Below are positions 981-37,524 of a stretch of DNA of 37,524 bases, in pieces. The position numbers and the translations under genes are program-made. Positions within the stretch are counted from its first letter, which is position 1. Every line of letters begins with the position of its first letter. The stretch is from a virus (Duplodnaviria; Heunggongvirae; Uroviricota; Caudoviricetes): the IMG/VR virus record IMGVR_UViG_2718217884_000001, positions 1-37,524 of that record. One strand, written 5' to 3'. The notes under the pieces were generated by a model, which saw only the letters and a program-made list of their open reading frames with translations, did not search any database and was not told where the DNA came from.

Positions 981-1035
981 GCAAGCACCTTAAAATCACC
1001 ATCATACACTAAATCAGTAAGTTGGCAGCATTACC

Positions 1036-2092
1036 GAAATCCTTGCTCATTGAGAGCTGTACTTGCGATAGAACGCAAGCCATGAGAAACGAGAACACCT
1101 CCTAACCCAGCACGCTTGAGTGCTGCATTCACTGTTTGGCTGTTCATTGGCTGGGTTGGTTTGATGCGACTGGGAAAGATAAATTCTCGACCACCACTGA
1201 GGGACTTCATCATTTCCAGAATTGAGATAGCCTCATCCGATAGTGGAACCGTATGGTCTCGGTTCATCTTCATTCGAGCTGCTGGAATTTTCCATTCTTT
1301 AGCATTGAAATCGATCTCATCCCATCGTGCCTCAGCAGCTTCGGCAGGGCGGGTAATGGTGAGAAGCTGCCACATGAACAGACACCGCGTGGACACACTG
1401 ATACTTGCCGTACGCATTGTTTGCATTAACTGTGGAAGTTGATCCGGGCGGATACTTGGCATGTTTTTCTTCTGCGGTTTCTCGAATGCTTTCCCGATAT
1501 TTACACTGGGAACTGCATCAATCAGGCCTGTGTTCTGTGCATAAATCATGACTTCATTAATACGCTGACAAAGGCGGCGAACAGTCTCTAATGCCCCCCT
1601 AGCCTGAACCGGCTGAACTGCTTTAACCAGAGTATGAGCCTTAATCTCAGTGACACTGATATCACCGATTGCTGGAAAAATATCTCTCTCAAGTGAGCGC
1701 CAGATATCGTCAGCATAGTCCTCTGTTACGCTGGCTTTCCTCACATTCCACCAACGCTCAGCAACTAACAAGAAGGTATTAGTTTTGGCCTCTTGAGAAT
1801 TTCTCACCTGTTCTTTCTGATGTTCCTGAGGATCAATGTCTTTCGCCAATAAAACTTTAGATTCGGCTCTGAGTTTACGTGCATCAGAAAGCGAGACGGC
1901 AGGGTAGGCACCGAAGCTCTGTTTGGTTCGCTGCTTGGTCAGAGGCCGATAGTAACGGAATTGCCAGAGCTTACTTCCACTGGATTTGATTAACAGAGTA
2001 AGTCCGTCACCATCATACAACTGGTAATCGGCATCTTTAGGTTTAGCGGCTTTGATTTCCGTATCGGTTAACGGCTTTGTTTTTCTTGCCAT
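1036..2092 (-). pseudogene. intA: CP4-57/P4-type tyrosine integrase (IntA-like), C-terminally truncated by IS1
   Basis: Translation from ATG at 2092 (MARKTKPLTDTEIKAAKPKDADYQLYDGDGLTLLIKSSGSKLWQFRYYRP...) is typical of P4-family integrases; GGAG Shine-Dalgarno 8 nt upstream; ORF ends ...HGLRSIASTALNEQGF at the IS1 boundary, so the catalytic Tyr region is missing. Confidence 0.85.
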
Positions 2093-2214
2093 GGGGAGTC
2101 TCCATGCGTTTAGGCCCAACGAAAACAATAGAGCTTTTCGTTGGGCCTATCAATGGGCCTAAAAGGTTCGGATTTAATTAGTTCTCTTCGGACTTCGCGG
2201 GACAAATTGAAGGC

Positions 2215-9485: not shown

Positions 9486-9674
9486 ATGCAGGATTATCTT
9501 TTGGAGTCGTTGAAGCTCCAGCGCATTGATTTTTTTATCAAGCTTGTAGCGGCTAGTGAGTGTAGCGACGAAGAAAAGCGGCTGGCTATCCAGTGGGTGT
9601 CCGAACTGACCGACGAGCTGATGGCGAAAATCCGCAGCCATGAATACTGCCGGTCAATGGATGTAACCAGTTAA
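9486..9674 (+). CDS. Small SOS-controlled protein (candidate antirepressor, Tum-position)
   Basis: 62 aa from ATG 9486 with GGAGGG RBS; directly downstream of LexA box; the longer 9378 start would precede the promoter. Confidence 0.5.
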   Translation: MQDYLLESLKLQRIDFFIKLVAASECSDEEKRLAIQWVSELTDELMAKIRSHEYCRSMDVTS

Positions 9675-19581: not shown

Positions 19582-20439
19582 CTATGAAATTAGTGATATT
19601 TTTTGATTGTAGTAATCATAATCCGCATGTTCTTCAGTAAAGAATAATTCAAAAGCCGTTAGCATATTTGAATAAAAACTATCTTTTGATATTGCAGTTT
19701 TTCTCTCATTTTTAGCTAAGTAATTGGTTATGAATCTTAATGATGCTGAGAATAGAAAGTGCCCCTTTATCCAATGCGTTATGCAAGTGTTGGCAGGAAA
19801 TTGAATGTTGTTTTTTTCTGCTAACCCTACATTTCTGAAATCATCAGGAAGGGTTTGAATATAAGCATTTATCTTATCTTGACATGTTTTGTAAGAGTTT
19901 TTTGATTGCATAAATCTATCGCATGAATCACCTACTACGGAATAGCCACGCTGATTTAAATGATTGTAAATATCTAAGGCAATTAGGTCTTCAATATTGT
20001 TATAAAACTCTAATAGCCAGGAGTTTATATTTATTCCTTGGATTTCTTTGGCACTGTATCTTCCCATGTGTTTTAACACACGGGATAGGACTTTCTCATC
20101 GACTATAGTATTTTCAATTGAGTAACCTTTTGTATAGATGATGTTTGTATGATTTACTAAGTTGGATGAAAAATGATTCAGATCTGCATCGCGGGCAACA
20201 ATTGCGTTTATTTGTCCTGATGTGATTCGCTCAATATAAGGTTCTAATGCTTCACACCCTCCAACTTCTTGCACTTCAACACTTAGTCGACCATTTTTTT
20301 TGAAAACTATTTCCCAAAATCCAATATCATCCTCACCTTCAACATATACCATGATATCAGCATCATAAAACATGCTGATAACATTTTCCGCCTCGTCAGA
20401 CCAATTAAAGTTATCTGTTCGAATCTCATTATTGGACAT
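19582..20439 (-). CDS. TOPRIM/DUF4435-like protein (PARIS AriB-like candidate effector)
   Basis: ATG 20439 overlaps the last codons of upstream ATPase gene; conserved acidic motifs VYVEGEDD and IVARDAD spaced as in TOPRIM folds; AT-rich. Confidence 0.5.
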   Translation of the reverse strand: MSNNEIRTDNFNWSDEAENVISMFYDADIMVYVEGEDDIGFWEIVFKKNGRLSVEVQEVGGCEALEPYIERITSGQINAIVARDADLNHFSSNLVNHTNIIYTKGYSIENTIVDEKVLSRVLKHMGRYSAKEIQGININSWLLEFYNNIEDLIALDIYNHLNQRGYSVVGDSCDRFMQSKNSYKTCQDKINAYIQTLPDDFRNVGLAEKNNIQFPANTCITHWIKGHFLFSASLRFITNYLAKNERKTAISKDSFYSNMLTAFELFFTEEHADYDYYNQKISLIS

Positions 20440-21682
20440 TGACAAGTTTCTCCATGTTAAAAATTGCACTCCTGTATTTTGAAGCTACTTCTGGAGAATG
20501 TGTGGCAGCTATTACTTGTGCATTGGGATTGAGTTTTTTGATTGCTGGGATAATGTTTCTTTGCCATTGAATATGTAGGGAGAGTTCAGGCTCATCTGTT
20601 AGGAAAATATATTGTTTTTCTCTTTGTAATAGGGTTTCTATGAATAAAATAAGTAATTGCTTCTCACCTGAAGATAAATTTTCCTGAATTATTGGTCCGT
20701 AAGTATTCTTTATGGAAAGTATTCCGCCTTGAAAGTCAAATTCCTTATCAGTAATAAATTCTTTTAAAATACTTAAAAATTGTTCAATGGGAGCGAAAAC
20801 TAAAGATGTTTTTTCTTTAGATTTTAAAGACATTCTAATTATTTTTTGTGTCTTTCTTAGCGCTTCAATTGAGCGGATGTCAAAACCATCTTTTTTATTT
20901 TGTTTTAATTCTGCAATGGTGTGATCAATAGTGTCAACATGGAAATTTATTTTCCGACGGACATTCATATCAATAGCGTTTAGTTGTGTGTACGCACTTA
21001 AAAGGTTTTGTTTTTCTTCCTCCTTGTTAAATTGAATGTTGTACGCCTTATCATCAATATCATCTTTACTATATAGAATAGATGCTAAAACTTCTTTTTG
21101 AAGTTCTAATGCAATATCTCTCGCTCGTTGAGATAATTCAAGTTGATATTTTGTTAATTCCTGCATTAATTCTGATAGTTTATAATCGACAGGGTTGATA
21201 AAGCGAGAGCCGTATTTGTCTCTAACCTCAAAGTCGTCACTATTCCTTAGTCTATAGACGGATAAAGATGAGAGTGAAACCAGTTTTGCTAATTCTGCTC
21301 TTAACTCCTCAGTCTCTTCTTGTGCTCTGCGTCTATAACTGAGGGAGATTCTTCTGTCATCGGCGTTGAATAGTCGGATGGTATGTTTTTTTGATGAAAG
21401 TTGATACTCTATTTTAGAGAACGGTGATGTATCACTCTCGATTTTCTTAATTTTTATTGTCTTAGTTTTCTTTTTGTCCTTTAGTTTTATTTCGGCACTA
21501 TTGAAATCATTGTTGTTAATGCCATCAAGGTCAATTGATAAAATTGAATGCAAAATATTCATAAAAGTTGTTTTGCCGGTTCCATTCCTTCCAATGATGA
21601 TGTTTACATCATCATTAAAAGAGCAAAGAGCATTTAATCTTTGCCAAAAACCATTGATAGCGATGCTTTGTATTTTATACAT
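20429..21682 (-). CDS. ABC-type ATPase (AAA_15/OLD-N-like; PARIS AriA-like candidate sensor)
   Basis: Walker A GRNGTGKTT, ABC signature LSSGEKQ, Walker B IFLTDEPELSLH, H-loop ATHSP; AAGGAG RBS 7 nt before ATG 21682; AT-rich. Confidence 0.6.
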   Translation of the reverse strand: MYKIQSIAINGFWQRLNALCSFNDDVNIIIGRNGTGKTTFMNILHSILSIDLDGINNNDFNSAEIKLKDKKKTKTIKIKKIESDTSPFSKIEYQLSSKKHTIRLFNADDRRISLSYRRRAQEETEELRAELAKLVSLSSLSVYRLRNSDDFEVRDKYGSRFINPVDYKLSELMQELTKYQLELSQRARDIALELQKEVLASILYSKDDIDDKAYNIQFNKEEEKQNLLSAYTQLNAIDMNVRRKINFHVDTIDHTIAELKQNKKDGFDIRSIEALRKTQKIIRMSLKSKEKTSLVFAPIEQFLSILKEFITDKEFDFQGGILSIKNTYGPIIQENLSSGEKQLLILFIETLLQREKQYIFLTDEPELSLHIQWQRNIIPAIKKLNPNAQVIAATHSPEVASKYRSAIFNMEKLVNVQ

Positions 21683-21725
21683 CAACTTACTCCTTGTTTT
21701 GGTTGAGTCGAACTTATCAACTGTT

Positions 21726-21743
21726 TGTACCAGCTATAACACA
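21726..21743 (+). promoter_or_regulatory. Candidate Ogr-dependent late promoter element upstream of V
   Basis: TGTACCAGCTATAACACA fits TGT-N12-ACA; spacing to V start is shorter than ideal. Confidence 0.35.
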
Positions 21744-21790
21744 ATTATGCTGGTTCGTACGAATCATTTCAAATGTTCAATATAGGCAGT

Positions 21791-22369
21791 ATGAACACAC
21801 AACTTACCGAAATCATGCGCCTTATCACCAATCTGATCCGTACCGGCACTGTGACCGAAGTGGACCGGAAAAAGTGGCTGTGTCGGGTGAAAGTGGGCGA
21901 GCTTGAAACTAACTGGATTAACTGGCTGACGCTGCGCGCCGGTGGTGCCCGTACATGGTGGTGTCCGTCGCCGGATGAGCAGGTGGTGTTGCTGAGCATG
22001 GGCGGCAATCTGGAAACCGCTTTTGTGCTGCCCGCTATCTACTCCAATCAGTTTCCGCCACCGTCGGATTCCGTGGACGGCTGCGTGACGGAGTACCCGG
22101 ACGGGGGATGGTTTGAGTATGAACCCGCCACCGGACGGTGGCATGTCAGGGGCATCAAATCCATGGTGATCGAGGCATCAGACAGTGTCACCTACAAAAC
22201 CGGTGAGTTTGTGGTGGAGGCTGACACCACGCGCATTAACAGCGAGGTGGTGATCAATGGCGGCGTCACCCAGGGCGGCGGCGCAATGAGTTCTAACGGG
22301 ATCGTAGTTGATGACCATGAGCATACTGGCGTTCTGAAAGGCGGCGACAACACGGGGGGACCGGTATGA
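21791..22369 (+). CDS. V: Baseplate spike/assembly protein V (P2 gpV)
   Basis: Starts MNT... like P2 V; alternative ATG at 21773. Confidence 0.8.
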   Translation: MNTQLTEIMRLITNLIRTGTVTEVDRKKWLCRVKVGELETNWINWLTLRAGGARTWWCPSPDEQVVLLSMGGNLETAFVLPAIYSNQFPPPSDSVDGCVTEYPDGGWFEYEPATGRWHVRGIKSMVIEASDSVTYKTGEFVVEADTTRINSEVVINGGVTQGGGAMSSNGIVVDDHEHTGVLKGGDNTGGPV

Positions 22370-23620: not shown

Positions 23621-24218
23621 CCTGTTGCCGCCGGGTTCGTCGCCGCTTGAGCGCCGACTGGCGCAGACCTGCAGCGGGATTTCCGATCTGCAGGTATCGC
23701 TGCGTGATTTGTGGAATCCGTCAATCTGCCCGGTCAGATTCCTGCCTTATCTGGCCTGGGCGTTTTCTGTTGACCGCTGGGATGAGAGCTGGACAGAAAG
23801 CGTCAAGCGCCGCGTTGTGCAGGACGCTTTTTATATCCATCAGCACAAGGGGACAACCAGCGCCGTGCGGCGCGTGGTGGAGCCGTTCGGCTTTCTGATC
23901 CGCATCATTGAGTGGTGGCAGACTGGCGAAATACCAGGGACGTTCCGTCTGGATATTGGCGTGCAGGACCAGGGCATAACAGAAGAAACCTATCTGGAGC
24001 TGGAGCGCCTGATCGGTGACGCCAAACCGTGCAGCCGTCACCTGGTTGGTATGTCCATCAACCTGCAGACAGGTGGCCCGTATTTTGTGGGCGCAGCCAC
24101 CTACACCGGCGAAGAAATCACGATCTACCCGTATATCAACGAAACCATTATTTCCGGCGGCACCGCTTATGAGGGCGGGGCGGTCCATGTTATTGACACG
24201 ATGAGAGTGAACCCATGA
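23613..24218 (+). CDS. I: Baseplate/tail protein I (P2 gpI)
   Basis: ATG 23613 overlapping J stop. Confidence 0.8.
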   Translation: MNSLLPPGSSPLERRLAQTCSGISDLQVSLRDLWNPSICPVRFLPYLAWAFSVDRWDESWTESVKRRVVQDAFYIHQHKGTTSAVRRVVEPFGFLIRIIEWWQTGEIPGTFRLDIGVQDQGITEETYLELERLIGDAKPCSRHLVGMSINLQTGGPYFVGAATYTGEEITIYPYINETIISGGTAYEGGAVHVIDTMRVNP

Positions 24219-25203
24219 GCGCAAAATTTTACACCCTGCTGACGGATATCGGCGCGGCGAAACTGGTAAGCGCCGCCGCGCTCGGTGTCCCACTAAAAAT
24301 TACCCATATGGCGGTGGGCAGCGGTGGTGGTATGCTGCCCACACCCAACGCGCAACAGACCGCGTTAGTGGCTGAGGAACGCCGCGCAGCGCTGAATATG
24401 CTGTATATCGACCCACAGAACAGCAGCCAGATTATTGCTGAGCAGGTGATCCCGGAAAATGAGGGCGGGTGGTGGATTCGTGAAGTCGGCCTGTTTGATG
24501 AAACAGGTGCGCTAATTGCTGTGGGAAACTGCCCGGAGAGCTACAAGCCGAAGCTGGCGGAGGGCAGCGGACGCACGCAGACCGTGCGAATGGTACTGAT
24601 TACCAGCAGCACGGATAACATCACCCTGAAAATTGACCCCGCTGTGGTTCTGGCAACCCGCAAATATGTGGATGATAAGGTGCTGGAACTTAAGGTGTAT
24701 GTGGATGACCTGATGGCAAAGCATCTTGCTGCGGTTGATCCTCATTCGCAATATGCACCAAAAGACAGTCCGACTCTGACAGGCATGCCTAAAACGCCAA
24801 CGCCACCGGCAGGAAACAACAGCACCCTGATTGCCAGTACAGCCTTTGTACAGGCCGCTATTCTTGCCCTGATAGGTGGCGCACCGGCAATGCTGGATAC
24901 GCTGAAAGAAATTGCGGCAGCTATCAATAATGACCCGAATTTCAGTACCACCATTAACAATGCGCTGGCACTGAAAGCACCACTGGCAAGCCCAGCCCTG
25001 ACCGGAACGCCAACGGCTCCGACTGCGGCGCAGACTGTGAACAATACGCAGATTGCCACTACAGCATTTGTGAAGGCAGCTATTGCCGGGCTGGTTGGTT
25101 CATCGCCGGAGGCGCTGGACACACTGAATGAACTGGCAGCTGCGCTGGGGAATGATCCTAACTTTGCGACAACAGTGATGAACGCGCTGGCGGGGAAACA
25201 GCC

Positions 25204-26542
25204 CATAAGCGCTAACTTAAGGGTTGAACCATCTGAAGAATGCGACGCCTCGGTGCCTCGTTAAGACGATGCCTCGCGTTCTTCAATTGCGTTTTGTAGG
25301 CTGTCAGGGATACTGTCCCACGAATGGCCACCTGTAAGCTCCAGATGACCATTTTTGTTATTCTCCACAACGAGTTAGTTCTTCTTTTCGGATCCGGCAC
25401 TTCTGGGGGGGAAATCCAGCGATGGCTGGATTATGTCGTCAATTAAAAATGCGGCGAGTAGATTAGCAAATATCCACGCTTTCGCGAGTTCAGGTTCCTT
25501 TGCACGCAAAGCATCCAGGTGCAGCAAACTTTTGAGCCGCTTAAAAGCCAGTTCAATTTGCCATCGCAGACGGTAACAATCAGCCACTTGCTCTGCTGAA
25601 TATTCATCTTCCGGTAATGATGTTAGCAATAGCACATGGCCCGCTGCTTCCAGCGTTTCCGCCTGAACTACTCGTCCTTTTCGACGATTCTCGCTGAGCA
25701 GTCGGGTTTTACTGATTAATGCTTTTTCGGGAGGAAGTGATACGGCAATGAGACGTGCCGGAAAGGGAGCTCCGGCTTTTTTATTACCTGAATTGCCTAT
25801 CATTACAGTGGTTTCACCGTTCTTACCGCAATCCAGCCCGCGCAGAAAACCCATCATGTCAAAGCGCATTCCTTCTGCAGTTAACCAGCGCAATCCTCGC
25901 CAGTGAACCCGGACGATATAATCAGCTTCTCCAAAAGCAAGTGAGCGGATACATTCGGGACGCGAACCGAATCCCCGGTCAGCAATGCGTATCTCGTCTG
26001 CCGTTTGCGCAAATCGGTCCAGCCGTTCAGCGTCTCTGCTGTCGGTTAGCTCAAAATCAGTGAACTGACAGGTATGAGGATCATATCCCATATGTAGTCG
26101 CCATTCAGCGCTGCCGCCCCCGGGCGCACTGATTGCTGTTCCATCGACAAGACGCAATCTCTTTCCGCTTGTACAACCCGTAACTGCGGCGCGTACAGCA
26201 AGTGTTTGTGCGGCAAGTATGCCAAACCAGTCGGCGGCATTCCGCAGCCGCTTCAGGAGAGCCACGTCAGATAATGTTGCAACGTCATGGAGCTGAGCCC
26301 ATGCAGTGACTTCACGTAATGACATCCCCCCGGGGCCGTAAGCCAGCCCCAGACGTAGCAGAGTTGCAGCATCACGAATTTCGCGGCGGCGGGTTAGAGC
26401 CCCGGCATTACGTGCCGAAGTATCCAGTTCTTCGGGCTTACCAATATGGGCCAGAATTGCTGACCAGTTATCGTGAGAGTAATTCATCGGCACGTTAAAT
26501 CATATCAGGCGTAATACCACAACCCTTAAGTTAGCGCTTATG
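25204..26542 (-). mobile_element. IS186 (IS4 family) insertion
   Basis: Inverted repeats CATAAGCGCTAACTTAAGGGTTG / CAACCCTTAAGTTAGCGCTTATG; direct repeat GGAAACAGCC at 25194..25203 and 26543..26552. Confidence 0.88.
25375..26493 (-). CDS. IS186 transposase (DDE, YREK motif)
   Basis: 372 aa; ...CYRLRWQIELAFKRLKSLL contains the IS4-family Y-R-E-K signature. Confidence 0.88.
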   Translation of the reverse strand: MPMNYSHDNWSAILAHIGKPEELDTSARNAGALTRRREIRDAATLLRLGLAYGPGGMSLREVTAWAQLHDVATLSDVALLKRLRNAADWFGILAAQTLAVRAAVTGCTSGKRLRLVDGTAISAPGGGSAEWRLHMGYDPHTCQFTDFELTDSRDAERLDRFAQTADEIRIADRGFGSRPECIRSLAFGEADYIVRVHWRGLRWLTAEGMRFDMMGFLRGLDCGKNGETTVMIGNSGNKKAGAPFPARLIAVSLPPEKALISKTRLLSENRRKGRVVQAETLEAAGHVLLLTSLPEDEYSAEQVADCYRLRWQIELAFKRLKSLLHLDALRAKEPELAKAWIFANLLAAFLIDDIIQPSLDFPPRSAGSEKKN

Positions 26543-26590
26543 GGAAACAGCCCCTCGATGCCACTTTGACTAACCTCAGCGGGAAAAGTG

Positions 26591-26616
26591 TTTCAGCCCT
26601 TCTACAATACCTTGGT
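26591..26616. promoter_or_regulatory. Hin/Gin-type recombination site (left crossover site of invertible tail-fibre segment)
   Basis: TTCTACAATACCTTGGTTTGGGAGAA; 12-bp half-sites around a central TT, resembles hix/gix; located in H at the constant/variable junction. Confidence 0.65.
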
Positions 26617-27083
26617 TTGGGAGAAGGCTCAGCGTTACCCGTTGGTGTACCTGTTCCGTGGTCTTCAGCCACTCCTCCAACAGGCTGGCTGAAATGCAAT
26701 GGTGCGCCTTTTTCTGCCGAAGAGTATCCGGAACTGGCAAAAGTTTATCCGACAAATGAATTGCCAGATTTACGTGGTGAGTTTATTCGTGGCTGGGATG
26801 ACGGGCGCGGTATTGACGCGGGGCGCGAAATTCTGTCTGCTCAGGGTGACGCCATTCGAAATATCGTTGGGCATATCTCATGCGTGCGTCGTGGGCCTGA
26901 AGGTTCAGACCGTGCCGATGGCGCGTTTAGATACGATAGCAACTGGTCTACAAAAATTAGATCGACTGATTTAGCAGACGACTGGGGGAGCGTAGTCTCA
27001 TTTGATGCCAGTCGCGTAGTTCCAACTGCACCAGAAAACCGTCCACGCAGTATCGCATTTAACTTCATCGTGAGGGCCGCATA

Positions 27084-27686
27084 ATGACACAGGCAAAATT
27101 AAACAGTGAATTTATTGCCACAGTAGCGGGTGATATGACCGTCTATAACTATGACAACACGACACGGGAATACATTTCATCATCAACAGAATATCTTGCC
27201 GTTGGCGTCGGTATCCCGGCATGTTCTTGTTTAGATGCACCAGTTACACATAAAGCTGGTTATGCAATCTGCCGTTCTGCAGATTTTAACTCATGGGAAT
27301 ATGTGCCAGACCATCGCGGTGAAATCATCTATAGCACCGAAACAGGAGAATCGAAAGAAATCACAGCTCTGGGTGATTACCCTGAAAATACAACCACTAT
27401 CGCCCCGTTAACGCCATATGATAAATGGGATGGTGAGAAATGGGTGACGGATACCGAGGCACAGCACGGCGCAGCAGTAGATGCAGCAGAAGCACAGCGC
27501 CAGTCGCTGATTGATACTGCAATGGCCTCCATCAGTCTGATTCAGCTGAAATTGCAGGCCGGACGTAAACTGACGCAGGCAGAAACAACCCGCCTTAACG
27601 CTGTGCTGGATTACATTGACGCGGTGACGGCAACAGATACCAGCACCGCGCCGGATGTCATCTGGCCTGAACTGCCGGAGGCGTAG
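27084..27686 (+). CDS. G: Tail fibre assembly chaperone (P2 gpG-like)
   Basis: 200 aa; C-terminal ...DYIDAVTATDTSTAPDVIWPELP typical of Tfa proteins. Confidence 0.8.
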   Translation: MTQAKLNSEFIATVAGDMTVYNYDNTTREYISSSTEYLAVGVGIPACSCLDAPVTHKAGYAICRSADFNSWEYVPDHRGEIIYSTETGESKEITALGDYPENTTTIAPLTPYDKWDGEKWVTDTEAQHGAAVDAAEAQRQSLIDTAMASISLIQLKLQAGRKLTQAETTRLNAVLDYIDAVTATDTSTAPDVIWPELPEA

Positions 27687-28110
27687 GCCATTCAATATCT
27701 GGCGCACCGGAAGTATCGACCAGCTCCAGTGCGTCCAGATAATCCAGCCACAAATTATATTGCGCCAGTTCATCATCTTTCAGACGACCAATAGCGGCTT
27801 TACCGGGCCATTGCTTACTGTTCATGTATTCGTTGGCCTGGTTAATTAGTAGCTGTCTTTCTGATTCAGTAATTTCAATAAGCTCTTCATGCGTGGGTGG
27901 AGGAATATCTGCCCACGCAGGCAGCCCATCATTTCCGGCAATACGGATTTTTCCTTGTGGCGGTTCAGCCATAAACTCACTGATAATATTTTGATTCACT
28001 TCCTTAGCATCTGATAAATCCCATCCCTCTGATTTATATTTATCAATCATATCCACAGGGAAAAAAGCATTATGCCTTGCGCTATAAACATATTCGTTCA
28101 TATAAATCAC
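27658..28110 (-). CDS. Alternative tail fibre assembly chaperone (inverted orientation)
   Basis: 150 aa; C-terminal ...DYLDALELVDTSGAPDIEWP parallels gpG; convergent with G. Confidence 0.75.
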   Translation of the reverse strand: MIYMNEYVYSARHNAFFPVDMIDKYKSEGWDLSDAKEVNQNIISEFMAEPPQGKIRIAGNDGLPAWADIPPPTHEELIEITESERQLLINQANEYMNSKQWPGKAAIGRLKDDELAQYNLWLDYLDALELVDTSGAPDIEWPTPPAVQAR

Positions 28111-28121
28111 CCTGAATAAAA

Positions 28122-28481
28122 TTACTCACCAACAGCCCACCAACTGTAATTCATCGATACAGTGTTGCTGGTTGATGACGTTCTGTAAGCAGAATTAAAG
28201 CCGGTTAACGTTGGGTCTTCTGCAGTCATCATGAACCCTCGCCCAGCGCCTAAAGGCGCACCGCCATCACCAGAATGAGTAAGCATGGCGCAGTCCGCTT
28301 TTTTGGGGAAAGGGATGCTGAATGTAATTCTCATTGTTTGCGTCGATAATGTCGGCGTAACCGCACCACGACCATATTGCAGGATTTTCCCGTTGGGTAA
28401 TTTCATCCATCCATCACCACTGGCAAAAGAGGCCATGTCCGGTATCTGATTTTCCCCTGTCCCCACATCCCGTTTTGCCGC
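28122..28481 (-). CDS. Alternative tail fibre C-terminal segment (promoterless; fused to H after inversion)
   Basis: Open frame continues from the right crossover site; after inversion would read ...YLGLGE-AAKRDVGTGENQ... in frame with H. Confidence 0.65.
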   Translation of the reverse strand, partial: AAKRDVGTGENQIPDMASFASGDGWMKLPNGKILQYGRGAVTPTLSTQTMRITFSIPFPKKADCAMLTHSGDGGAPLGAGRGFMMTAEDPTLTGFNSAYRTSSTSNTVSMNYSWWAVGE

Positions 28482-28507
28482 TTCTCCCAAACCAACATTT
28501 AGCCAAA
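28482..28507. promoter_or_regulatory. Hin/Gin-type recombination site (right crossover site)
   Basis: TTCTCCCAAACCAACATTTAGCCAAA; first 14 nt identical to reverse complement of left site inner half-site plus core. Confidence 0.65.
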
Positions 28508-28592
28508 GCCAGTATTGAATCAGTTACGTAGCAAATGATTCCAGCATCTGAAAATCATGGCATGCTGTTTACCTTTTAAGAGGTTATTTTTC

Positions 28593-29150
28593 ATGCAAAT
28601 AGGCTATGTGAGGGTGTCAACAAATGACCAGAACACTGCTTTGCAACGTGATGCACTGGAACGCTCAGGATGTGAGCTAATTTTTGAAGACAAAATGAGC
28701 GGAAAAACAGCAGACAGACCAGGGCTAAAAAGGTTGCTCAGGACGTTATCAGAGGGAGACACGCTGGTTGTATGGAAGCTCGACAGGCTGGGAAGAAGCA
28801 TGCGACACCTTGTTACCCTGATAGAAGAACTCCGGCAGCGCGGAGTTAATTTCCGTAGTCTGACTGACAGCATAGACACCAGTACACCAATGGGGCGGTT
28901 TTTCTTTCACGTTATGGGGGCACTGGCGGAGATGGAACGCGAGTTGATAGTGGAACGAACCCGTGCGGGACTGGAAGCCGCAAGAGCTAAAGGCAGGATT
29001 GGAGGGCGAAGACCAAAACTGACGCCAGAGCAATGGGCACAGGCTGGCAGGTTACTTGCTGCAGGTGAAACACGGCAGCGGGTTGCTTTAATTTTTGATG
29101 TGGGGATCTCGACGTTATACCGCAAATATCCTGCGACATTGTGTGATTAA
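28593..29150 (+). CDS. Serine DNA invertase (Hin/Gin/Pin/Cin family)
   Basis: MQIGYVRVSTNDQN...GDTLVVWKLDRLGRS...MGRFFFHVMGALAEMERELIVERT matches the resolvase/invertase catalytic domain; C-terminal HTH. Confidence 0.9.
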   Translation: MQIGYVRVSTNDQNTALQRDALERSGCELIFEDKMSGKTADRPGLKRLLRTLSEGDTLVVWKLDRLGRSMRHLVTLIEELRQRGVNFRSLTDSIDTSTPMGRFFFHVMGALAEMERELIVERTRAGLEAARAKGRIGGRRPKLTPEQWAQAGRLLAAGETRQRVALIFDVGISTLYRKYPATLCD

Positions 29151-29233
29151 CAGGACAACGCCGCGCAGCTGTCTGCGTGACGTAATCAATACAACATAGG
29201 GCGAAGCCTATTCCAATCAGGAGGTTCGCCGCT

Positions 29234-30406
29234 ATGGCTCAGGATTACCACCACGGGGTGCGCGTTGTTGAAGTCAACGAGGGCACCCGATCTATCACCA
29301 CGGTGAGCACCGCTATCGTGGGCATGGTCTGCACCGGCGATGATGCTGATGCGTCCGTGTTTCCTCTCAATAAGCCGGTTCTGCTGACGGATGTGCTGGA
29401 GGCCAGCGGTAAAGCAGGCGAGTCCGGCACGCTGGCCCGTTCGCTTGATGCGATTGCCGACCAATCAAAACCCGTGACGGTTGTTGTGCGCGTGGCGCAG
29501 GGCGAAACCGAAGCGGAAACCACCTCCAATATTATCGGTGGCGTCACGTCCGACGGTAAAAAAACGGGGATGAAAGCGCTGCTTTCTGCGCAGTCGCAGC
29601 TGAAAGTTAAGCCGCGCATTCTCGGTGTGCCGGGGCATGACACGCAGGCGGTAGCCACTGAGCTGATGAGTATTGCGCAGAGCCTGCGCGGGTTTGCCTA
29701 CCTGTCTGCCTATGGCTGCAAGACGGTGGAGGAAGCCATTGCTTACCGGGACAATTTCAGCCAGCGAGAAGGGATGCTGATCTGGCCTGATTTCATCAAC
29801 TTTGACACCGTTCTTAAAGCCGATGCGACGGCTTACGCCTCCGCACGTGCGCTCGGTCTGCGCGCCAAAATCGACGAACAGACCGGATGGCACAAAACCC
29901 TGTCCAACGTGGGTGTGAATGGCGTCACCGGTCTTTCCGCTGATGTGTTCTGGGATCTGCAGGACCCGGCAACAGACGCGGGACTGCTGAACCAGAATGA
30001 CGTCACCACGCTGATCTGCAAAGACGGCTTCCGCTTCTGGGGTTCCCGCTGCCTCAGTGACGATCCATTGTTTGCGTTTGAGAACTACACCCGTACGGCG
30101 CAGGTGCTGGCTGACACGATTGCAGAGGGGCATATGTGGGCGGTGGATAAGCCACTGAATCCGTCACTGGCCCGCGACATTATCGAAGGTATTCGCGCCA
30201 AATTACGCAGCCTGGTAAATCAGGGATACCTCATCGGGGCGGACTGCTGGCTGGATGAGTCAGTGAACGATAAAGACTCTCTGAAAGCCGGGAAGCTCAC
30301 CATCGACTACGACTACACGCCTGTGCCGCCGCTTGAAAATCTGATGCTGCGCCAGCGCATCACCGATCGCTACCTGGTCGATTTTGCCAGCCGTGTCAGT
30401 GCATAA
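29234..30406 (+). CDS. FI: Tail sheath protein (P2 gpFI)
   Basis: 390 aa, position and size. Confidence 0.88.
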
Positions 30407-30416
30407 GGGGGGATAC

Positions 30417-30932
30417 ATGGCATTACCACGCAAGTTAAAACACCTGAATCTGTTCAACGACGGGAACAACTGGCAGGGGATCGTTGAGTCCCTGACTCTG
30501 CCGAAATTCACCCGCAAGTTTGAGAAGTATCGCGGCGGCGGTATGCCGGGCGCGGTAGATGTGGATATGGGGCTGGATGACGGCGCACTCGACACGGAAT
30601 TTTCAATCGGCGGCACCGAACTGTTGTTATTCAAGCAGATGGGCAAGGCAACCGTTGATGGCATCCAGCTGCGTTTCACCGGCTCTATTCAGCGTGACGA
30701 TACCGGCGAAGTTCAGGCCATTGAGCTGGTTGTGCGGGGGCGTCATAAAGAAGTGGATTCCGGCGAGTGGAAAACCGGCGAGAGCAGCACCACCAAAGTC
30801 AGCAGCACCAACAGCTACGCGAAGCTGACCATTAACGGCGAAGTGCTCTATGAGGTTGATCTGGTCAACATGATTGAAATCGTTGACGGCGCGGACCTGA
30901 TGGAAGCACACCGTAACGCCCTTGGCCTCTGA
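30417..30932 (+). CDS. FII: Tail tube protein (P2 gpFII)
   Basis: ATG 30417; 171 aa. Confidence 0.88.
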   Translation: MALPRKLKHLNLFNDGNNWQGIVESLTLPKFTRKFEKYRGGGMPGAVDVDMGLDDGALDTEFSIGGTELLLFKQMGKATVDGIQLRFTGSIQRDDTGEVQAIELVVRGRHKEVDSGEWKTGESSTTKVSSTNSYAKLTINGEVLYEVDLVNMIEIVDGADLMEAHRNALGL

Positions 30933-30986
30933 TTTAACTTAACGGCGCGGTGATCCGCGCCAGTATCTGATTAACAGGAAACGAAC

Positions 30987-31289
30987 ATGAGCGACAAGCT
31001 GACTGAAAAAACCGTACAACTGGATACGCCCATCATGCGCGGTAAAACCCAAATCACCGAAATTGTGCTGCGTAAGCCGCAGTCCGGTGCGCTGCGCGGC
31101 ACCCGCCTGCAGGCCATTATGGATATGGACGTGGGGGCCATGATGACAGTGATCCCGCGTATTTCCACCCCAACGCTGACCGCACAGGAAATGGCTGAAC
31201 TGGACCCCGCCGATCTCACCGCGCTGTCGGTCGAGGTGGTGACTTTTTTGTTGAAGAAGTCGGTGCTTGCCGGTTTACCGACAGCCTGA
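30987..31289 (+). CDS. E: Tail assembly chaperone E (P2 gpE)
   Basis: 100 aa; contains slippery TTTTTTG near 3' end. Confidence 0.8.
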   Translation: MSDKLTEKTVQLDTPIMRGKTQITEIVLRKPQSGALRGTRLQAIMDMDVGAMMTVIPRISTPTLTAQEMAELDPADLTALSVEVVTFLLKKSVLAGLPTA

Positions 31290-31423
31290 CGATTGATGAC
31301 CTGGTGGCGGATATCGCCACCATCTTTCACTGGTCGCCGTCCATCACTGACGTTATGCCGCTGACAGAGGTGCTGGAGTGGCGGCATAAAGCGATTCAGA
31401 GAAGCGGGGCCAGCGATGAGTGA
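30987..31423 (+). CDS. E+E' frameshift-extended tail chaperone (programmed -1 frameshift at 31244..31250)
   Basis: Slippery heptamer T TTT TTG; -1 frame is open to TGA at 31421..31423, overlapping T start. Confidence 0.6.
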
Positions 31424-34400
31424 CAATAACCTGCGTCTGCAGGTGATTCTGAATGCGGTTGACAAGCTCACCCGCCCATTTCGATCCGCGCAGACCAGCT
31501 CAAAAGAGCTGGCTGCCGCCATTCAGCAAAGCCGCGCCCGGCTGAAAGAGTTAGATTCTCAGGCGGGCAGAATTGATGGCTTCCGTAAGGCCAGCGCGCA
31601 GCTAGCAGTCACAGGTAACAGCCTTAAAGCCGCCCGCGAAGAAGCGGCAAAACTCGCCACGCAGTTTACTGCGACCAACCGCCCGACGGCAGCTCAGGCC
31701 AGGCTGCTTGAGCAGGCTAAAAATCGCGTCACCGATTTACAGGGAAAATATAACGGGCTGCGTCAGTCAGTGCAGCGTCAGCGCCTTGCGCTGAATGAGG
31801 CAGGGCTTGATACAAAGAAACTGAGCAGCGCACAGCGTGAGCTACGGCAGAACGCCGATGAAACCCGACTGGCACTGGAGCGACAGCAAAAATCTCTGAA
31901 ACACCTGGGTGAACAGCAGGCGAGAATGAATGCGGTTCGTGATCAGTATTCGCGCCGTCTTGAGGTTCGGGATCGCATAGCCGGAGCCGGAGCCACCACT
32001 ACAGCTGCCGGGCTGGCAATGGGTGCGCCGGTTTTGGCTGCAGTGAAAAGCTACGCCAGCATGGAAGATGCCATGAAAGGCGTGGCAAAGCAGGTAAACG
32101 GGTTGCGGGACGATAACGGCAACCGTACAAAACAGTTTTATGACATGCAGGATGCCATTAAGGCTGCCAGTGAGCAGCTGCCGATGGAGAATGGCGCTAT
32201 AGATTATGCCGCGCTGGTTGAAGGGGGCGCGCGTATGGGCGTGACCAGCCAGGACGATCTCTTTGAGGACCAGAAACGTGACCTGCTGGCCTTTGCATCC
32301 ACGGCGGCAAAAGCTGCAACGGCCTTTGAGCTGCCCGCCGATGAGCTGGCGGAAGGATTGGGGAAAATCGCGCAGCTCTATAAAGTGCCGACGCGCAATA
32401 TTGAACAACTGGGCGATGCGCTGAACTACCTGGACGATAACGCCATGTCAAAGGGCGGGGACATTATCAACGTCCTGCAGCGTATGGGGGGCGTGGCTGA
32501 CCGCCTTGACTTCCGAAAAGCTGCTGCGCTGGGTTCAACATTCCTTTCTCTTGGGGCTGCCCCGGAAATTGCCGCCAGCGCCTCTAATGCCATGGTGCGT
32601 GAACTGTCCATTGCCACCATGCAAAGTAAGCGCTTCTTTGAAGGTATGAATCTGCTGAAACTCAATCCTGCGGAGATTGAAAAGCAGATGACCACCGATG
32701 CCATGGGCACCATTCAGCGGGTTCTGGAGAAGGTCAACAATCTGCCGCAGGATAAACGCCTGTCAGCCATGACAATGATTTTTGGTAAAGAGTTTGGCGA
32801 TGATGCGGCAAAGCTGGCTAACAACCTGCCGGAGCTGCAGCGTCAGCTGAAACTCACATCAGGCAGTGGTGCGAATGGCTCGATGCAGAAAGAATCCGAC
32901 ATTAACAAGGATTCATTGTCTGCGCAGTGGTTGCTGGTTAAGACTGGCGCGCAGAACGCTTTCAGCAGTCTGGGGGAAACGTTGCGCCAGCCGCTGATGG
33001 ATATTATGGGCATGGTTAAGGGTGTGACCGGGGCGCTGCGTCGCTGGGTGGAGCAGAATCCCGTGCTGGCTGGCACGCTGATGAAAGTGGCGGCGGCTAC
33101 GGCGGCTGTCACTGTCGGGCTGGGTACACTTGCCGTGGCAGTGGCTGCTGTGCTGGGGCCGATTGCGGTGATTCGGTTTGGCCTGTCTGTGCTGGGTGTA
33201 AAAACATTACCTTCCGTTGCTGCAGCGGTAACACGTACTGGCGGTGCCCTGTCATGGCTGGCAGGTGCGCCACTTTCCCTGTTGCGTCGGGGTATGGCGT
33301 CATCCGGTGGCAGTGTAGGGTTACTGAGTGCCCCGCTTAATTCCCTGCGTCGCTCAGCCGGAATAGCGGGTAATGCACTGAAAACGGTGGCAGGTGCTCC
33401 GCTTGCCGTGTTCCGTGTCGGTATGTCAGGCATCCGTAATGTTATCGGTATGGTGATGAACCCGCTGGCGGCGTTGCGTGGTGGGCTGACAGCTGCCGGT
33501 GGCGTATTGCGTTTTCTTGTTTCTGGTCCGCTGGCATTACTTCGCGGCGCGCTGTTTGGTATTTCCGGCCTGCTGGGTGCGCTGCTCAGTCCGATAGGGC
33601 TGGTTGTGGCTGCGCTGGCTGGTGTGGCGCTGGTTGTGTGGAAATACTGGCAGCCCATCAGTGCATTTCTGGGGGGCGTGGTGGAAGGGTTCAAAGCCGC
33701 TGCAGCGCCAATTAGCGCCGCCTTTGAGCCGCTCAGGCCCATGTTCCAGTGGATTGGTGACAGGGTGCAGGCCTTGTGGGGCTGGTTCAGCGATTTACTT
33801 TCGCCGGTTAAATCCACTTCCGAAGAACTGAACAGCGCAGCTGCAATGGGGCGCCGGTTTGGTGAGGCGCTGGCGGAAGGTCTGACTATGGTGATGCACC
33901 CGCTGGAGTCTCTTAAATCCGGTGTGTCATGGCTACTGGAAAAGCTCGGTATTGTCAGTAAGGAGGCGGCAAAGGCGAAACTGCCTGCACAGGTCACGCA
34001 GCAGCAATCCGCCACGGTGAACAGTGACGGCAAAGTGGTGCTGCCGCCAGGCGGGTTCCCGGCTTACGCAGGGATGTACGACACGGGCGGGATCATTCCA
34101 CGCGGGCAGTTTGGCATTGTTGGAGAAAATGGCCCTGAAATTGTGAACGGACCGGCAAATGTCACCAGCAGGCGGCGTACTGCTGCGCTTGCCTCTGTCG
34201 TTGCAGGCGTTATGGGGGTTGCTGCGACACCTGCAGAAGCGGTTCCGCTTCATCCGTTCAGTCTGCCTGCGAGTGCATACCAGACGCAGCCAGTGAAGGC
34301 TGACAGCCCGCCGTCAGTTATTCGTTATGAGATAAATGCGCCCATTCATATCGTCGCGCAGCCGGGACAGAGTGCGCAGGATATTGCCCGTGAAGTGGCA

Positions 34401-34481
34401 CGTCAGCTTGACGAGCGGGAACGCAGGGCCAGGGCAAAAGCGCGCAGCAATTTCAGCGATCAGGGGGGGTATGAATCATGA
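31416..34481 (+). CDS. T: Tail tape measure protein (P2 gpT)
   Basis: 1021 aa, coiled-coil N-terminus, Gly/Ala-rich hydrophobic middle with degenerate repeats. Confidence 0.9.
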   Translation: MSDNNLRLQVILNAVDKLTRPFRSAQTSSKELAAAIQQSRARLKELDSQAGRIDGFRKASAQLAVTGNSLKAAREEAAKLATQFTATNRPTAAQARLLEQAKNRVTDLQGKYNGLRQSVQRQRLALNEAGLDTKKLSSAQRELRQNADETRLALERQQKSLKHLGEQQARMNAVRDQYSRRLEVRDRIAGAGATTTAAGLAMGAPVLAAVKSYASMEDAMKGVAKQVNGLRDDNGNRTKQFYDMQDAIKAASEQLPMENGAIDYAALVEGGARMGVTSQDDLFEDQKRDLLAFASTAAKAATAFELPADELAEGLGKIAQLYKVPTRNIEQLGDALNYLDDNAMSKGGDIINVLQRMGGVADRLDFRKAAALGSTFLSLGAAPEIAASASNAMVRELSIATMQSKRFFEGMNLLKLNPAEIEKQMTTDAMGTIQRVLEKVNNLPQDKRLSAMTMIFGKEFGDDAAKLANNLPELQRQLKLTSGSGANGSMQKESDINKDSLSAQWLLVKTGAQNAFSSLGETLRQPLMDIMGMVKGVTGALRRWVEQNPVLAGTLMKVAAATAAVTVGLGTLAVAVAAVLGPIAVIRFGLSVLGVKTLPSVAAAVTRTGGALSWLAGAPLSLLRRGMASSGGSVGLLSAPLNSLRRSAGIAGNALKTVAGAPLAVFRVGMSGIRNVIGMVMNPLAALRGGLTAAGGVLRFLVSGPLALLRGALFGISGLLGALLSPIGLVVAALAGVALVVWKYWQPISAFLGGVVEGFKAAAAPISAAFEPLRPMFQWIGDRVQALWGWFSDLLSPVKSTSEELNSAAAMGRRFGEALAEGLTMVMHPLESLKSGVSWLLEKLGIVSKEAAKAKLPAQVTQQQSATVNSDGKVVLPPGGFPAYAGMYDTGGIIPRGQFGIVGENGPEIVNGPANVTSRRRTAALASVVAGVMGVAATPAEAVPLHPFSLPASAYQTQPVKADSPPSVIRYEINAPIHIVAQPGQSAQDIAREVARQLDERERRARAKARSNFSDQGGYES

Positions 34482-34963
34482 TGATGGTGCTGGGTTTATA
34501 TGTATTTATGCTGCGCACTGTCCCTTATCAGGAGCTGCAGTATCAGCGCAGCTGGCGACATGCCGCCAACAGCCGGGTGAATCGCCGCCCGTCAACGCAG
34601 TTTCTTGGCCCGGATAATGATTCACTGACACTGTCCGGGGTTCTGCTGCCGGAAGTGACCGGAGGCAGGTTGTCATTGCTGGCGCTGGAGTTGATGGCAG
34701 AGCAGGGCAAAGCCTGGCCTTTGATTGAAGGCAGCGGAACCATTTACGGCATGTTTGTTATTGAAAGTCTGAGCCAGACAAAGACGGAGTTTTTTGCCAG
34801 CGGTATGCCCAGGCGCATTGAGTTTACGATCACCCTCAAACGGGTTGATGAATCACTGTCTGACATGTTCGGGAGCCTGAGTGACCCGCTCAGCAACCTG
34901 CAGGACTCTGCTGCCTCTGCGATTGGGGGGATTAAGAACACGGTAGGAGGATTGCTGCAGTGA
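34478..34963 (+). CDS. U: Tail protein U (P2 gpU)
   Basis: 161 aa, overlaps T stop. Confidence 0.85.
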   Translation: MMMVLGLYVFMLRTVPYQELQYQRSWRHAANSRVNRRPSTQFLGPDNDSLTLSGVLLPEVTGGRLSLLALELMAEQGKAWPLIEGSGTIYGMFVIESLSQTKTEFFASGMPRRIEFTITLKRVDESLSDMFGSLSDPLSNLQDSAASAIGGIKNTVGGLLQ

Positions 34964-36060
34964 ACGTTAATTCTGATCTTCTGAATCTGAACAGCAAAAG
35001 CCCGGCTTTCAGTATCGTCATTGAAGGTAAGGACGTGACGACCGTGCTGGATACCCGCCTGATGAGTCTGACGCTGACGGATAACCGGGGCTTTGAAGCG
35101 GACCAGCTTGATCTGGAGCTGGACGACGCCGACGGGCTGATCGCCCTGCCGCGACGTGGGGCAGTGATTCAGCTGGCGCTGGGCTGGAAAGGCCAGCCGC
35201 TTTTCCCTAAAGGGGCTTTTACTGTGGATGAAATTGAACACAGCGGTGCCCCTGACCGGCTGACCATCCGGGCGCGTAGCGCAGATTTCCGTGAAACCCT
35301 CAATACACGGCGCGAAAAATCATGGCATCAGACAACGGTGGGGGAGGTGGTAAAGGAAATAGCCGCCCGGCATAACCTCAAAATGGCGCTGGGTAAAGAC
35401 CTGACGGATAAGGCGCTGGATCATCTGGACCAGACCAATGAAAGCGATGCAAGTTTTCTGATGAAACTGGCGAGACAGTATGGGGCGATTGCTTCCGTTA
35501 AGGACGGGAATCTGCTGTTTATCCGGCAGGGACAGGGAAGAACGGCGAGCGGCAAGCCGCTGCCGGTTATCACCATCACTCGCAAAGCCGGTGACGGTCA
35601 TCGGTTCACCCTTGCTGATCGTGGTGCCTATACCGGTGTTATTGCCAGCTGGTTGCATACGCGTGAACCCAGGAAAAAAGAGACAACCAGTGTTAAGCGT
35701 CGTCGAAAGAAAACCACCACACCCAAAGAGCCGGAAGCAAAACAGGGCGATTATCTGGTGGGAACGGATGAAAACGTGCTAGTTCTTAATCGTACCTACG
35801 CCAACCGGAACAATGCTGAGCGCGCAGCAAAAATGCAGTGGGAACGTCTGCAGCGTGGGGTTGCTACATTTTCCCTGCAGCTCGCTGAGGGGCGGGCTGA
35901 TCTCTATACGGAAATGCCGGTGAAGGTTACAGGGTTCAAGCAGCCGATCGATGATGCAGAGTGGACCATTACCACCCTGACGCATTCTGTCAGCCCGGAT
36001 AATGGATTTACGACCAGCATGGAGCTTGAAGTAAAGATTGGTGATCTTGAAATTGAATAA
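34960..36060 (+). CDS. D: Tail protein D / late control D family (P2 gpD)
   Basis: 366 aa, GTG start overlapping U stop. Confidence 0.88.
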   Translation: MNVNSDLLNLNSKSPAFSIVIEGKDVTTVLDTRLMSLTLTDNRGFEADQLDLELDDADGLIALPRRGAVIQLALGWKGQPLFPKGAFTVDEIEHSGAPDRLTIRARSADFRETLNTRREKSWHQTTVGEVVKEIAARHNLKMALGKDLTDKALDHLDQTNESDASFLMKLARQYGAIASVKDGNLLFIRQGQGRTASGKPLPVITITRKAGDGHRFTLADRGAYTGVIASWLHTREPRKKETTSVKRRRKKTTTPKEPEAKQGDYLVGTDENVLVLNRTYANRNNAERAAKMQWERLQRGVATFSLQLAEGRADLYTEMPVKVTGFKQPIDDAEWTITTLTHSVSPDNGFTTSMELEVKIGDLEIE

Positions 36061-36128
36061 TCGGTTCTCAATACTGAATAATGATGTATCATTATTGCGA
36101 CTACGGCAAGAGTGGTGGGATAACAGCG

Positions 36129-36347
36129 ATGATGAACTGTCCAGAGTGCGGTCATGCAGCACATACCAGAAGCAGTTTTCAGGTATCAGCTACGACAAAA
36201 GAACGTTACAACCAGTGCCAAAATATAAATTGTGGCTGTACGTTCGTTACTCATGAAACGTTTGTACGGCACATTATAAAACCGAATCTAATTTCTTCTG
36301 CGCCGCCACATCCTGGAAAAGGTGGTCAAGGCCACATGAGTTTCTGA
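36129..36347 (+). CDS. ogr: Late gene transcriptional activator (Ogr/Delta/186 B zinc-finger family)
   Basis: MMNCPECGHAAHTRSS...KERYNQCQNINCGCTF: CxxC-N22-CxxxxC zinc finger as in P2 Ogr. Confidence 0.85.
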   Translation: MMNCPECGHAAHTRSSFQVSATTKERYNQCQNINCGCTFVTHETFVRHIIKPNLISSAPPHPGKGGQGHMSF

Positions 36348-36351
36348 ACAG

Positions 36352-36377
36352 AACCCGCTTTAAAGGCGGGTTTTTTG
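36352..36377 (+). terminator. Rho-independent terminator after ogr
   Basis: CCCGC-TTTAAAG-GCGGG followed by TTTTTTG. Confidence 0.75.
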
Positions 36378-36462
36378 TTGCCGCCAGTCCGACACTCTGT
36401 CGCCATTTTGCCGCCACTACCAAAGAAAAAGGGGCTACGTTTTCACGTAACCCCTTGTTTTA

Positions 36463-36509
36463 TTTGGTGGAGCTGGCGGGAGTTGAACCCGCGTCCGAAA
36501 TTCCTACAT
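36463..36509 (-). repeat. attR core: 47-bp direct repeat (within intact ssrA 3' end)
   Basis: Identical to 2294..2340. Confidence 0.9.
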
Positions 36510-36827
36510 CCTCGGTACTACATGCTTAGTCAGTCTTTACATTCGCTTGCCAGCTGCGGACGGACACGCCACTAACAAACTAGCCTGATTAAGTTTTAAC
36601 GCTTCAACCCCAGGCAGGGCTTCCACGCGATCTCTTTTGGGTTTGACCTCTCTTGATCCCCGTCCTAAGAGCGGAGGCTAGGGAGAGAGGGCTCTAAGCA
36701 GGTTATTAAGCTGCTAAAGCGTAGTTTTCGTCGTTTGCGACTATTTTTTGCGGCTTTTTACGAGGCCAACCGCCCCTCGGCATGCACCTTGGGTTTCGCA
36801 AATCCCGTCGAATCCAGAATCAGCCCC
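36465..36827 (-). ncRNA. ssrA: tmRNA (SsrA), intact
   Basis: Reverse complement begins GGGGCTGATTCTGGATTCGACGGG and ends GGTTCAACTCCCGCCAGCTCCACCA; tag region GCAAACGACGAAAACTACGCTTTAGCAGCTTAA (ANDENYALAA) present. Confidence 0.95.
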
Positions 36828-37041
36828 AATGTGTAAAGGTAAGTATACCAGATTTATGAGCGCCATGACCAGCCTCAATGGCGTTATCGTTAAAGATTTA
36901 GCACCCATGTAGCCTGATTTTTATTCGATTAAGCAATGGGATGGCAACATTTGTGTCGGATGTGATAGCCAATAAGATGTTCATTCGCGCCGCCGGAGAG
37001 GGAGGCGCGGTGAGGAACTGGTCAATAATTGGAGTGCAGGT

Positions 37042-37524
37042 TTAACGGTGGGCGTTTTTCATGATACGCGCTTTATCCACCTGCCATTCGCGCTCTTTGA
37101 TATCTGAACGTTTATCGTGCTGTTTCTTACCTTTGGCGACGCCGATTTTCACTTTGCACCAGGCATTTTTCCAGTACAGGGAGAGCGCCACTACGGTATA
37201 GCCTTCTCGATTGACGCGACCGTACAATGAGTCCAGTTCGCGCTGGTTGAGAAGTAACTTGCGGGTACGGGTAGGATCGCACACCACATGCGTGGAGGCC
37301 ACTGCCATTGGCGTGATGTTTGCGCCAAACAGGAACGCTTCTCCGTCACGCAGAAGGACATAGCTGTCGCTGATATTGGCTTTTCCTGCGCGCAGGGATT
37401 TAACTTCCCAGCCTTGCAGGGCAAGTCCCGCTTCGAACTCTTCTTCGATAAAGTATTCGTGACGGGCGCGCTTGTTAAGCGCGATGGTCGCTGAACCAGG
37501 TTTATGTGCTTTTTTCTTCGTCAT
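37042..37524 (-). CDS. smpB: SsrA-binding protein SmpB
   Basis: 160-aa translation [56 protein letters not shown]...; start codon at window edge. Confidence 0.95.

Follow-up and report, generated by a model that had tools for sequence, protein, structure and literature searches.

The 37,524-nucleotide (nt) stretch of DNA analysed here, hereafter the window, spans positions 1 to 37,524 of the IMG/VR virus record IMGVR_UViG_2718217884_000001 and carries a Fels-2-type prophage of the P2 family at the tmRNA gene ssrA. The tail-fibre gene of this prophage, H, is interrupted by a complete copy of the insertion sequence (IS) IS186, which lies between two copies of its 10-bp target and separates the constant 5' part of the gene from the remainder. 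The interrupted locus comprises the following features (aa, amino acids; ORF, open reading frame).

24215..25203, plus strand: 5' part of H, residues 1-330, constant region (Pfam Phage_tail_fib N-terminal domain, 6e-63)
25194..25203, no strand: left copy of the target duplication GGAAACAGCC (exact repeat)
25204..26542, minus strand: complete IS186, transposase antisense to H (1339/1339 nt identity to IS186A of MG1655)
25204..25226, plus strand: terminal inverted repeat at the end distal to the transposase start (exact match)
25375..26487, minus strand: IS186 transposase InsL, 370 aa, the sole transposase ORF (Pfam DDE_Tnp_1 and YREK motif)
26520..26542, minus strand: terminal inverted repeat at the end proximal to the transposase start (exact match)
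26543..26552, no strand: right copy of the target duplication GGAAACAGCC (exact repeat)
26553..27084, plus strand: 3' part of H, comprising the last stretch of constant sequence (up to about 26613) and then variable C-terminus 1 (Pfam Collar, 2.6e-14)

A complete IS186 occupies its preferred target in H

The original prediction, made from the letters of the window without database searches, had proposed that H is split by a complete IS186 with defined inverted ends, and alignment to the reference bears this out. The element matches IS186A of Escherichia coli K-12 MG1655 without a gap at all 1,339 bases. This reference copy is annotated 'insertion sequence:IS186A' in a record that gives 1,345 bp for it; under the boundary convention adopted here, which follows the 23-bp inverted repeats, the IS is 1,339 bp and the duplication 10 bp. 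The terminal inverted repeat, CATAAGCGCTAACTTAAGGGTTG, is 23 nt long and perfect, and is present in the window in exactly two copies in opposite orientations, against a chance expectation of 0 even when three mismatches are allowed. With a repeat finder the inverted arms came out at 25 nt, an extension explained by the palindromic target (CC.../...GG). The left junction reads GCGGGGAAACAGCC followed by CATAAGCGCTAACTTAAGGGTTG, and the right junction, some 1.3 kb downstream, reads CAACCCTTAAGTTAGCGCTTATG followed by GGAAACAGCCCCTCGAT. The assignment of the transposase to the IS4 type on the strength of a YREK motif also held, as InsL matches Pfam DDE_Tnp_1 (1.6e-26; 93.7 bits, cutoff 23) and contains the IS4-family signature Y-x2-R-x3-E-x6-K in the form YRLRWQIELAFKRLK at residues 305-319.

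The direct target duplication that had been claimed consists of the only two copies of GGAAACAGCC in the window, where 0.09 would be expected by chance and where two matches were obtained in none of 100 shuffles. The repeat finder returned a direct repeat of 12 nt, GGGAAACAGCCC, with a spacing of 1,349, since one base at each end of the IS can be assigned to the IS or to the target alike. The restored site is GGGGAAACAGCCCC, within which the uninterrupted target reads GGGG-AAACAG-CCCC and is formed by the codons GCG GGG AAA CAG CCC CTC (A-G-K-Q-P-L of H). The H frame at 25193-25204 reads GGG AAA CAG CCC, which locates the insertion within the GKQP codons, as predicted. The original target-consensus paper for IS186, SaiSree et al. 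2001, reportedly concerns site-specific insertion, judging from its title. In E. coli mutation-accumulation lines, nearly all IS186 insertions fell at 5'-GGGG(N6/N7)CCCC-3', in both orientations, a motif with only 54 occurrences in the K-12 genome (PMC5009759). This motif occurs once in the restored window, at the site that is occupied, and thus the position of the insertion needs nothing beyond the target preference of the element. The flanks of K-12 IS186A, GGGGATCACTCC on one side of the IS and GGATCACTCCCC on the other, have the same geometry as the prophage insertion. The prophage element shares with K-12 IS186A, IS186B and IS186C, of the IS4 family, its sequence over 1,339 nt, the 23-bp inverted repeats, the 370-aa transposase, the 10-bp duplication (GG+N6+CC) and the GGGG(N6)CCCC target; it differs from known IS186 copies in location alone, an insertion at the H site being absent from the collections searched. 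As the K-12 copies are mobile in mutation-accumulation lines (PMC5009759), the prophage copy, being identical in sequence, is probably competent for transposition as well.

The interrupted gene has the hallmarks of the P2 tail-fibre protein gpH, namely an N-terminal tail-fibre domain (Phage_tail_fib, within residues 1-150), a C-terminal collar, an assembly gene (Caudo_TAP, 1.7e-32) and the gene order V-W-J-I-H-G. The order around H agrees with the annotation of related prophages, and the Fels-2 homologue is annotated as a 'P2 gpH-like protein'. The 5' part shares 99.9% identity with the opening 990 nt of H in the prophages of strains L3Cip3 and LS45, where the gene is intact (see below). As it stands, however, the window contains no uninterrupted full-length H frame: the frame that starts at 24215 enters the IS, continues for 19 codons and stops at 25264, giving a truncated product of 349 aa made up of 330 H residues and 19 IS-encoded residues. 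The 3' part has neither a start codon nor a promoter of its own, and it sits in another frame, because 1,349 mod 3 = 2, so that it is unreachable by read-through. The statement that H resumes exactly after the element holds, with one nuance. In silico deletion of 25204-26552 yields an open H of 1,521 nt and 506 aa, but the frame resumes only when one copy of the repeat is removed together with the IS. The restored H is colinear with the intact LS45 protein (502 aa), and the two agree at every residue from 301 to 360, a stretch that includes the junction. A scan of 25000-27200 detected no sigma-70-like promoter. Within the IS, on the H strand, a terminator-like hairpin lies at 25757-25776; such a match to the consensus occurs at chance frequency.

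Near-identical prophages retain the empty site

Related prophages occupy the same chromosomal position in several complete E. coli genomes. Those of L3Cip3, EN-1077 and 702/18 are 99.9% identical to the window at 87% coverage, and those of LS45, XH992, CS5L and E22 are 99.4% identical at 91% coverage. The comparison with related prophages suggested in the original prediction proved decisive. Both L3Cip3 and LS45 have an empty site, at which 24215-25204 and the sequence from 26542 onward align adjacently with a 12-nt overlap. Each has a single copy of GGGAAACAGCCC and an intact annotated H, of 500 or 502 aa; an empty-site junction would read GCGGGGAAACAGCCCCTCGAT. Since both prophages are nearly identical to that of the window, these empty sites are proof of an insertion event.

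Outside the invertible segment described below, identity to L3Cip3 and LS45 is 99.7-99.95% and all large genes are open. The ORF lengths of the integrase, repressor, replication protein, portal, terminase, capsid, baseplate, sheath, tape measure and gpD equal those annotated in the relatives. Against LS45, positions 2295-25204 show two substitutions, one in-frame 6-nt deletion in a replication gene and three extra bases within a small ORF, while positions 28434-37524 show 30 substitutions and no gaps. Outside the fibre region, the differences at 8954 and at 9503-9537 are the only ones from the LS45 prophage that are not substitutions. The 6-nt deletion leaves a replication endonuclease of 802 aa, compared with 804 in LS45, and the small ORF, with its 1+2 extra bases, is annotated as frameshifted in LS45 and is probably intact in the window. 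The IS is the sole disruptive difference, and a recent single event is therefore favoured over prolonged decay.

The late region of the prophage is about 91% identical in nucleotide sequence, over about 68%, to Fels-2, SopE-phi, SEN8 and RE2010, and it shares with the Fels-2/SopE-phi group (Felsduovirus, at ssrA) the P2 gene order, the invertase and the invertible fibre segment. It differs from that group in that H is broken by IS186, and its variable cassettes differ from those of its closest relatives. The ssrA gene adjoins the prophage at 36465-36827, and the 47 bp of its 3' end recur as a direct repeat (2294-2340 and 36464-36509), whose copies are attL and attR and delimit an element of about 34.2 kb, IS included.

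Between tail genes S and V lies an island of low GC content (19582-21685, minus strand; 33-42% GC, compared with about 55-60% around it) that encodes a DUF4435 protein (PADLOC AriB, 9e-23) and an AAA_15/AAA_21 ATPase (PADLOC AriA, 2e-36). This AriA/AriB-like pair constitutes a PARIS-like anti-phage defence cargo and is also present in LS45 and L3Cip3. Outside the prophage, at 283-2128, an IS1 (ORF 283-786; Pfam DDE_Tnp_IS1, 1e-74) abuts the 3' end of intA, a CP4-57-type integrase gene (1031-2128, minus strand) in which the match to the catalytic domain ends at profile position 145 of 172; this is a second mobile-element gene disrupted by an IS, just beyond the prophage boundary. Strains 1008S19 and N9 have the same left flank (99.9-100%) directly beside ssrA, without a Fels-2-like prophage.

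The insertion lies upstream of an invertible fibre segment

Downstream of the IS, the 3' part of H runs into a segment with the organization of a Hin/Gin-type DNA switch.

26600..26625, plus strand: left crossover site, TTCTACAATACC-TT-GGTTTGGGAGAA, starting 47 bp past the right target duplication
26626..27084, plus strand: variable H C-terminus 1, tail-collar domain (Pfam Collar)
27084..27686, plus strand: tail-fibre assembly gene for C-terminus 1 (Pfam Caudo_TAP, 1.7e-32)
27658..28110, minus strand: tail-fibre assembly gene for the alternative C-terminus (Pfam Caudo_TAP, 7.4e-31)
28122..28490, minus strand: alternative variable H C-terminus (Pfam Gp53-like_C, 4.9e-13), its ORF starting inside the right crossover site
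28482..28507, plus strand: right crossover site, TTCTCCCAAACC-AA-CATTTAGCCAAA, inverted relative to the left site
28593..29150, plus strand: serine DNA invertase of the Hin/Gin/Cin type (Pfam Resolvase, 9e-53, and HTH_7, 7e-13)

The crossover sites contain a perfect 15-nt inverted repeat (26612-26626 and 28481-28495), and the alternative C-terminus would join the constant part of H upon inversion. At the position of the invertase the relatives have an annotated recombinase family gene of 558 nt. Identity to L3Cip3 ends exactly at the left crossover site. The homologous cassette of L3Cip3 is on the strand opposite to that in LS45 and the window, and the cassettes are only 79-87% identical, which makes the opposite orientation indirect evidence of inversion; overall, the variable cassettes show 79-94% identity to those of the closest relatives or no match.

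Serine-invertase switches of this kind are known from the G segment of Mu, the C segment of P1 and the P segment of e14 (Hin/Gin/Cin/Pin). The prophage shares with Hin/Gin-type segments a serine invertase beside a segment of about 1.9 kb, 26-bp inverted sites (12+2+12), a crossover inside the fibre gene, two C-termini and an assembly gene for each. Unlike the Mu, P1 and e14 switches, however, that of the prophage would have no functional output: with IS186 lodged in the constant part of H, 47 bp ahead of the left site, both alternative C-termini are cut off at once from the N-terminus that binds the baseplate.

The occupied site was found in the window alone

IS186 itself is common. Places covering at least 80% of the element were present in 2,146 of 5,426 complete E. 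coli genomes, with a median of 3 per carrying genome, and the best place was at least 99% identical in 2,724 records of this search. The names given to identical copies by the NCBI pipeline vary between 'IS186B family' and 'IS421 family' transposase. When the IS was searched with 200-bp flanks against the same genomes, no place covering at least 80% was found, and a 300-nt query across the left junction, run in sensitive mode on this set, likewise had no match at 80% or above. The exact 39-nt junction had 0 matches in the GTDB species representatives, in IMG/VR and in the JGI metagenomes, and an exact look-up of the H'-IS fusion protein found it not to be on record. Matches to the empty-site sequence were few: 4 in IMG/VR, and 2 among the species representatives, neither of them in an enterobacterium.

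A recurrent or wider role of the H site as a hot spot was considered and rejected, as no second occupied site turned up in the collections searched and the empty site is rare outside the lineage. Known hot spots of IS186, at the lon promoter in E. coli B and at fimA and menC in K-12, likewise reflect site-specific insertion at GGGG(N6/N7)CCCC and inactivate the gene (PMC5009759); they are, however, host chromosomal loci that are hit repeatedly, whereas the H site shows no recurrence. A separate IS186 event was seen in the ssrA prophage of E. coli GPEC1201 (L004, about 84% identical), in which an IS186/IS421 copy at 20940-22052 lies between ogr and ssrA, beside a gene with a reverse-transcriptase domain, and not in H.

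Discussion

We hold with high confidence that an IS186 copy of the host transposed into its preferred target in H, splitting the gene and disconnecting both of its C-termini. An active host-resident copy would have moved into GGGG-AAACAG-CCCC, and staggered cleavage and repair would have duplicated 10 bp (GGAAACAGCC), leaving H as a 5' fragment, predicted to give the 349-aa product, and a 3' fragment lacking promoter and start. Whichever way the invertible segment lay, the N-terminus that binds the baseplate would then receive no receptor-binding C-terminus, and the 349-aa product would be missing its receptor-binding end as well as the region on which the assembly chaperone acts. Transcription into the downstream assembly gene may also be reduced. 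Induction of the lysogen would still be lethal to the cell, as the genes for lysis and replication are intact, but the particles released would be expected to lack fibres and to be non-infectious. The prophage, although otherwise complete, is thus very probably unable to make working fibres or infectious particles. The original prediction that intact fibres are probably not made unless the IS is lost is well founded, and it is strengthened by the position of the insertion upstream of the invertible segment. Reversion of H would be rare because it requires precise excision; a single IS excision, of IS3, was recorded in about 2.2 million generations (PMC5009759).

Some considerations weigh against this explanation. 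H is an essential tail-fibre gene in P2 genetics, and the loss of infectivity is predicted from those established genetics by analogy. Polarity on the downstream genes is presumed, the hairpin in the IS being of a kind expected at chance frequency. The allele is without an independent second observation, since neither the junction nor the fusion protein was found anywhere else in the collections searched.

It could be argued that the split is an artefact in which a multi-copy IS186 was misplaced into H during contig assembly or scaffolding. Repeats are a classic source of misassembly, carrying genomes have several IS186 places, and the junction is unique among all the collections searched. A misjoin, however, would not duplicate 10 bp of the target perfectly and in direct orientation, nor would it hit the only GGGG(N6)CCCC in the window or copy the geometry of K-12 IS186A, and we consider an artefact extremely improbable. 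It is also highly improbable that the split gene still functions, whether through precise excision in a subpopulation, through recombination with or complementation by another P2-like prophage, or through an outward promoter borne by the IS. The 10-bp direct repeats allow precise excision in principle, the restored H is fully open, and H homologues occur at more than one place in several E. coli genomes (at as many as 7 in one genome). The one excision in the mutation-accumulation lines was, however, not of IS186 (PMC5009759), the promoter scan of 25000-27200 was negative, and a 3' fragment without the N-terminal baseplate-binding domain could not attach to the tail.

Selection could also be invoked, as the knock-out of H may have been favoured because it stops the loss of cells to phage spread, or prophage transfer, while immunity and the PARIS-like pair are kept. 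The AriA/AriB-like genes are indeed aboard, the repressor and integrase are intact, and one insertion in the constant region disables both fibre variants. Induction would still kill a cell whose prophage has intact lysis, replication and capsid genes, however, and the loss of fibres alone would benefit the host little. The target motif, moreover, fully accounts for the position without selection, and IS186 at the H site was found in none of the 5,426 genomes, though close relatives retain the empty motif. Domestication by selection is therefore very unlikely. An extension of this argument, that the A-G-K-Q-P-L codons offer IS186-bearing hosts a one-hit means of disarming both fibre variants and that such knock-outs are selected for the immunity and PARIS-like cargo, merits equally little credence; the lack of a second occupied site among the complete genomes speaks against recurrence.

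Transposition of a host IS186 into H thus remains the preferred explanation, and the insertion appears to be recent and not necessarily selected. The original prediction had gone further in reading it as a sign of prophage decay or domestication, and this part found little support: elsewhere the prophage matches its uninterrupted relatives at 99.7-99.95% identity with no other disruptive difference, and the identity of the IS to an active reference copy fits a recent single event. Rather than progressive decay or demonstrated selection, the pattern looks like one recent, probably neutral, event at a target that the element prefers.

The case is an ordinary one, in which a known active IS inactivates a prophage gene at a known motif, and the novel item is this insertion site only, which is absent from every collection searched. 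Current understanding of IS186, of P2-family phages and of prophage decay is unchanged. In practical terms, the annotation of the prophage should carry a 'disrupted H' mark. The locus provides a clean natural case of IS186 choosing GGGG(N6)CCCC in newly acquired DNA, and it illustrates how one insertion, if placed ahead of an invertible fibre segment, would abolish both host-range variants at once.

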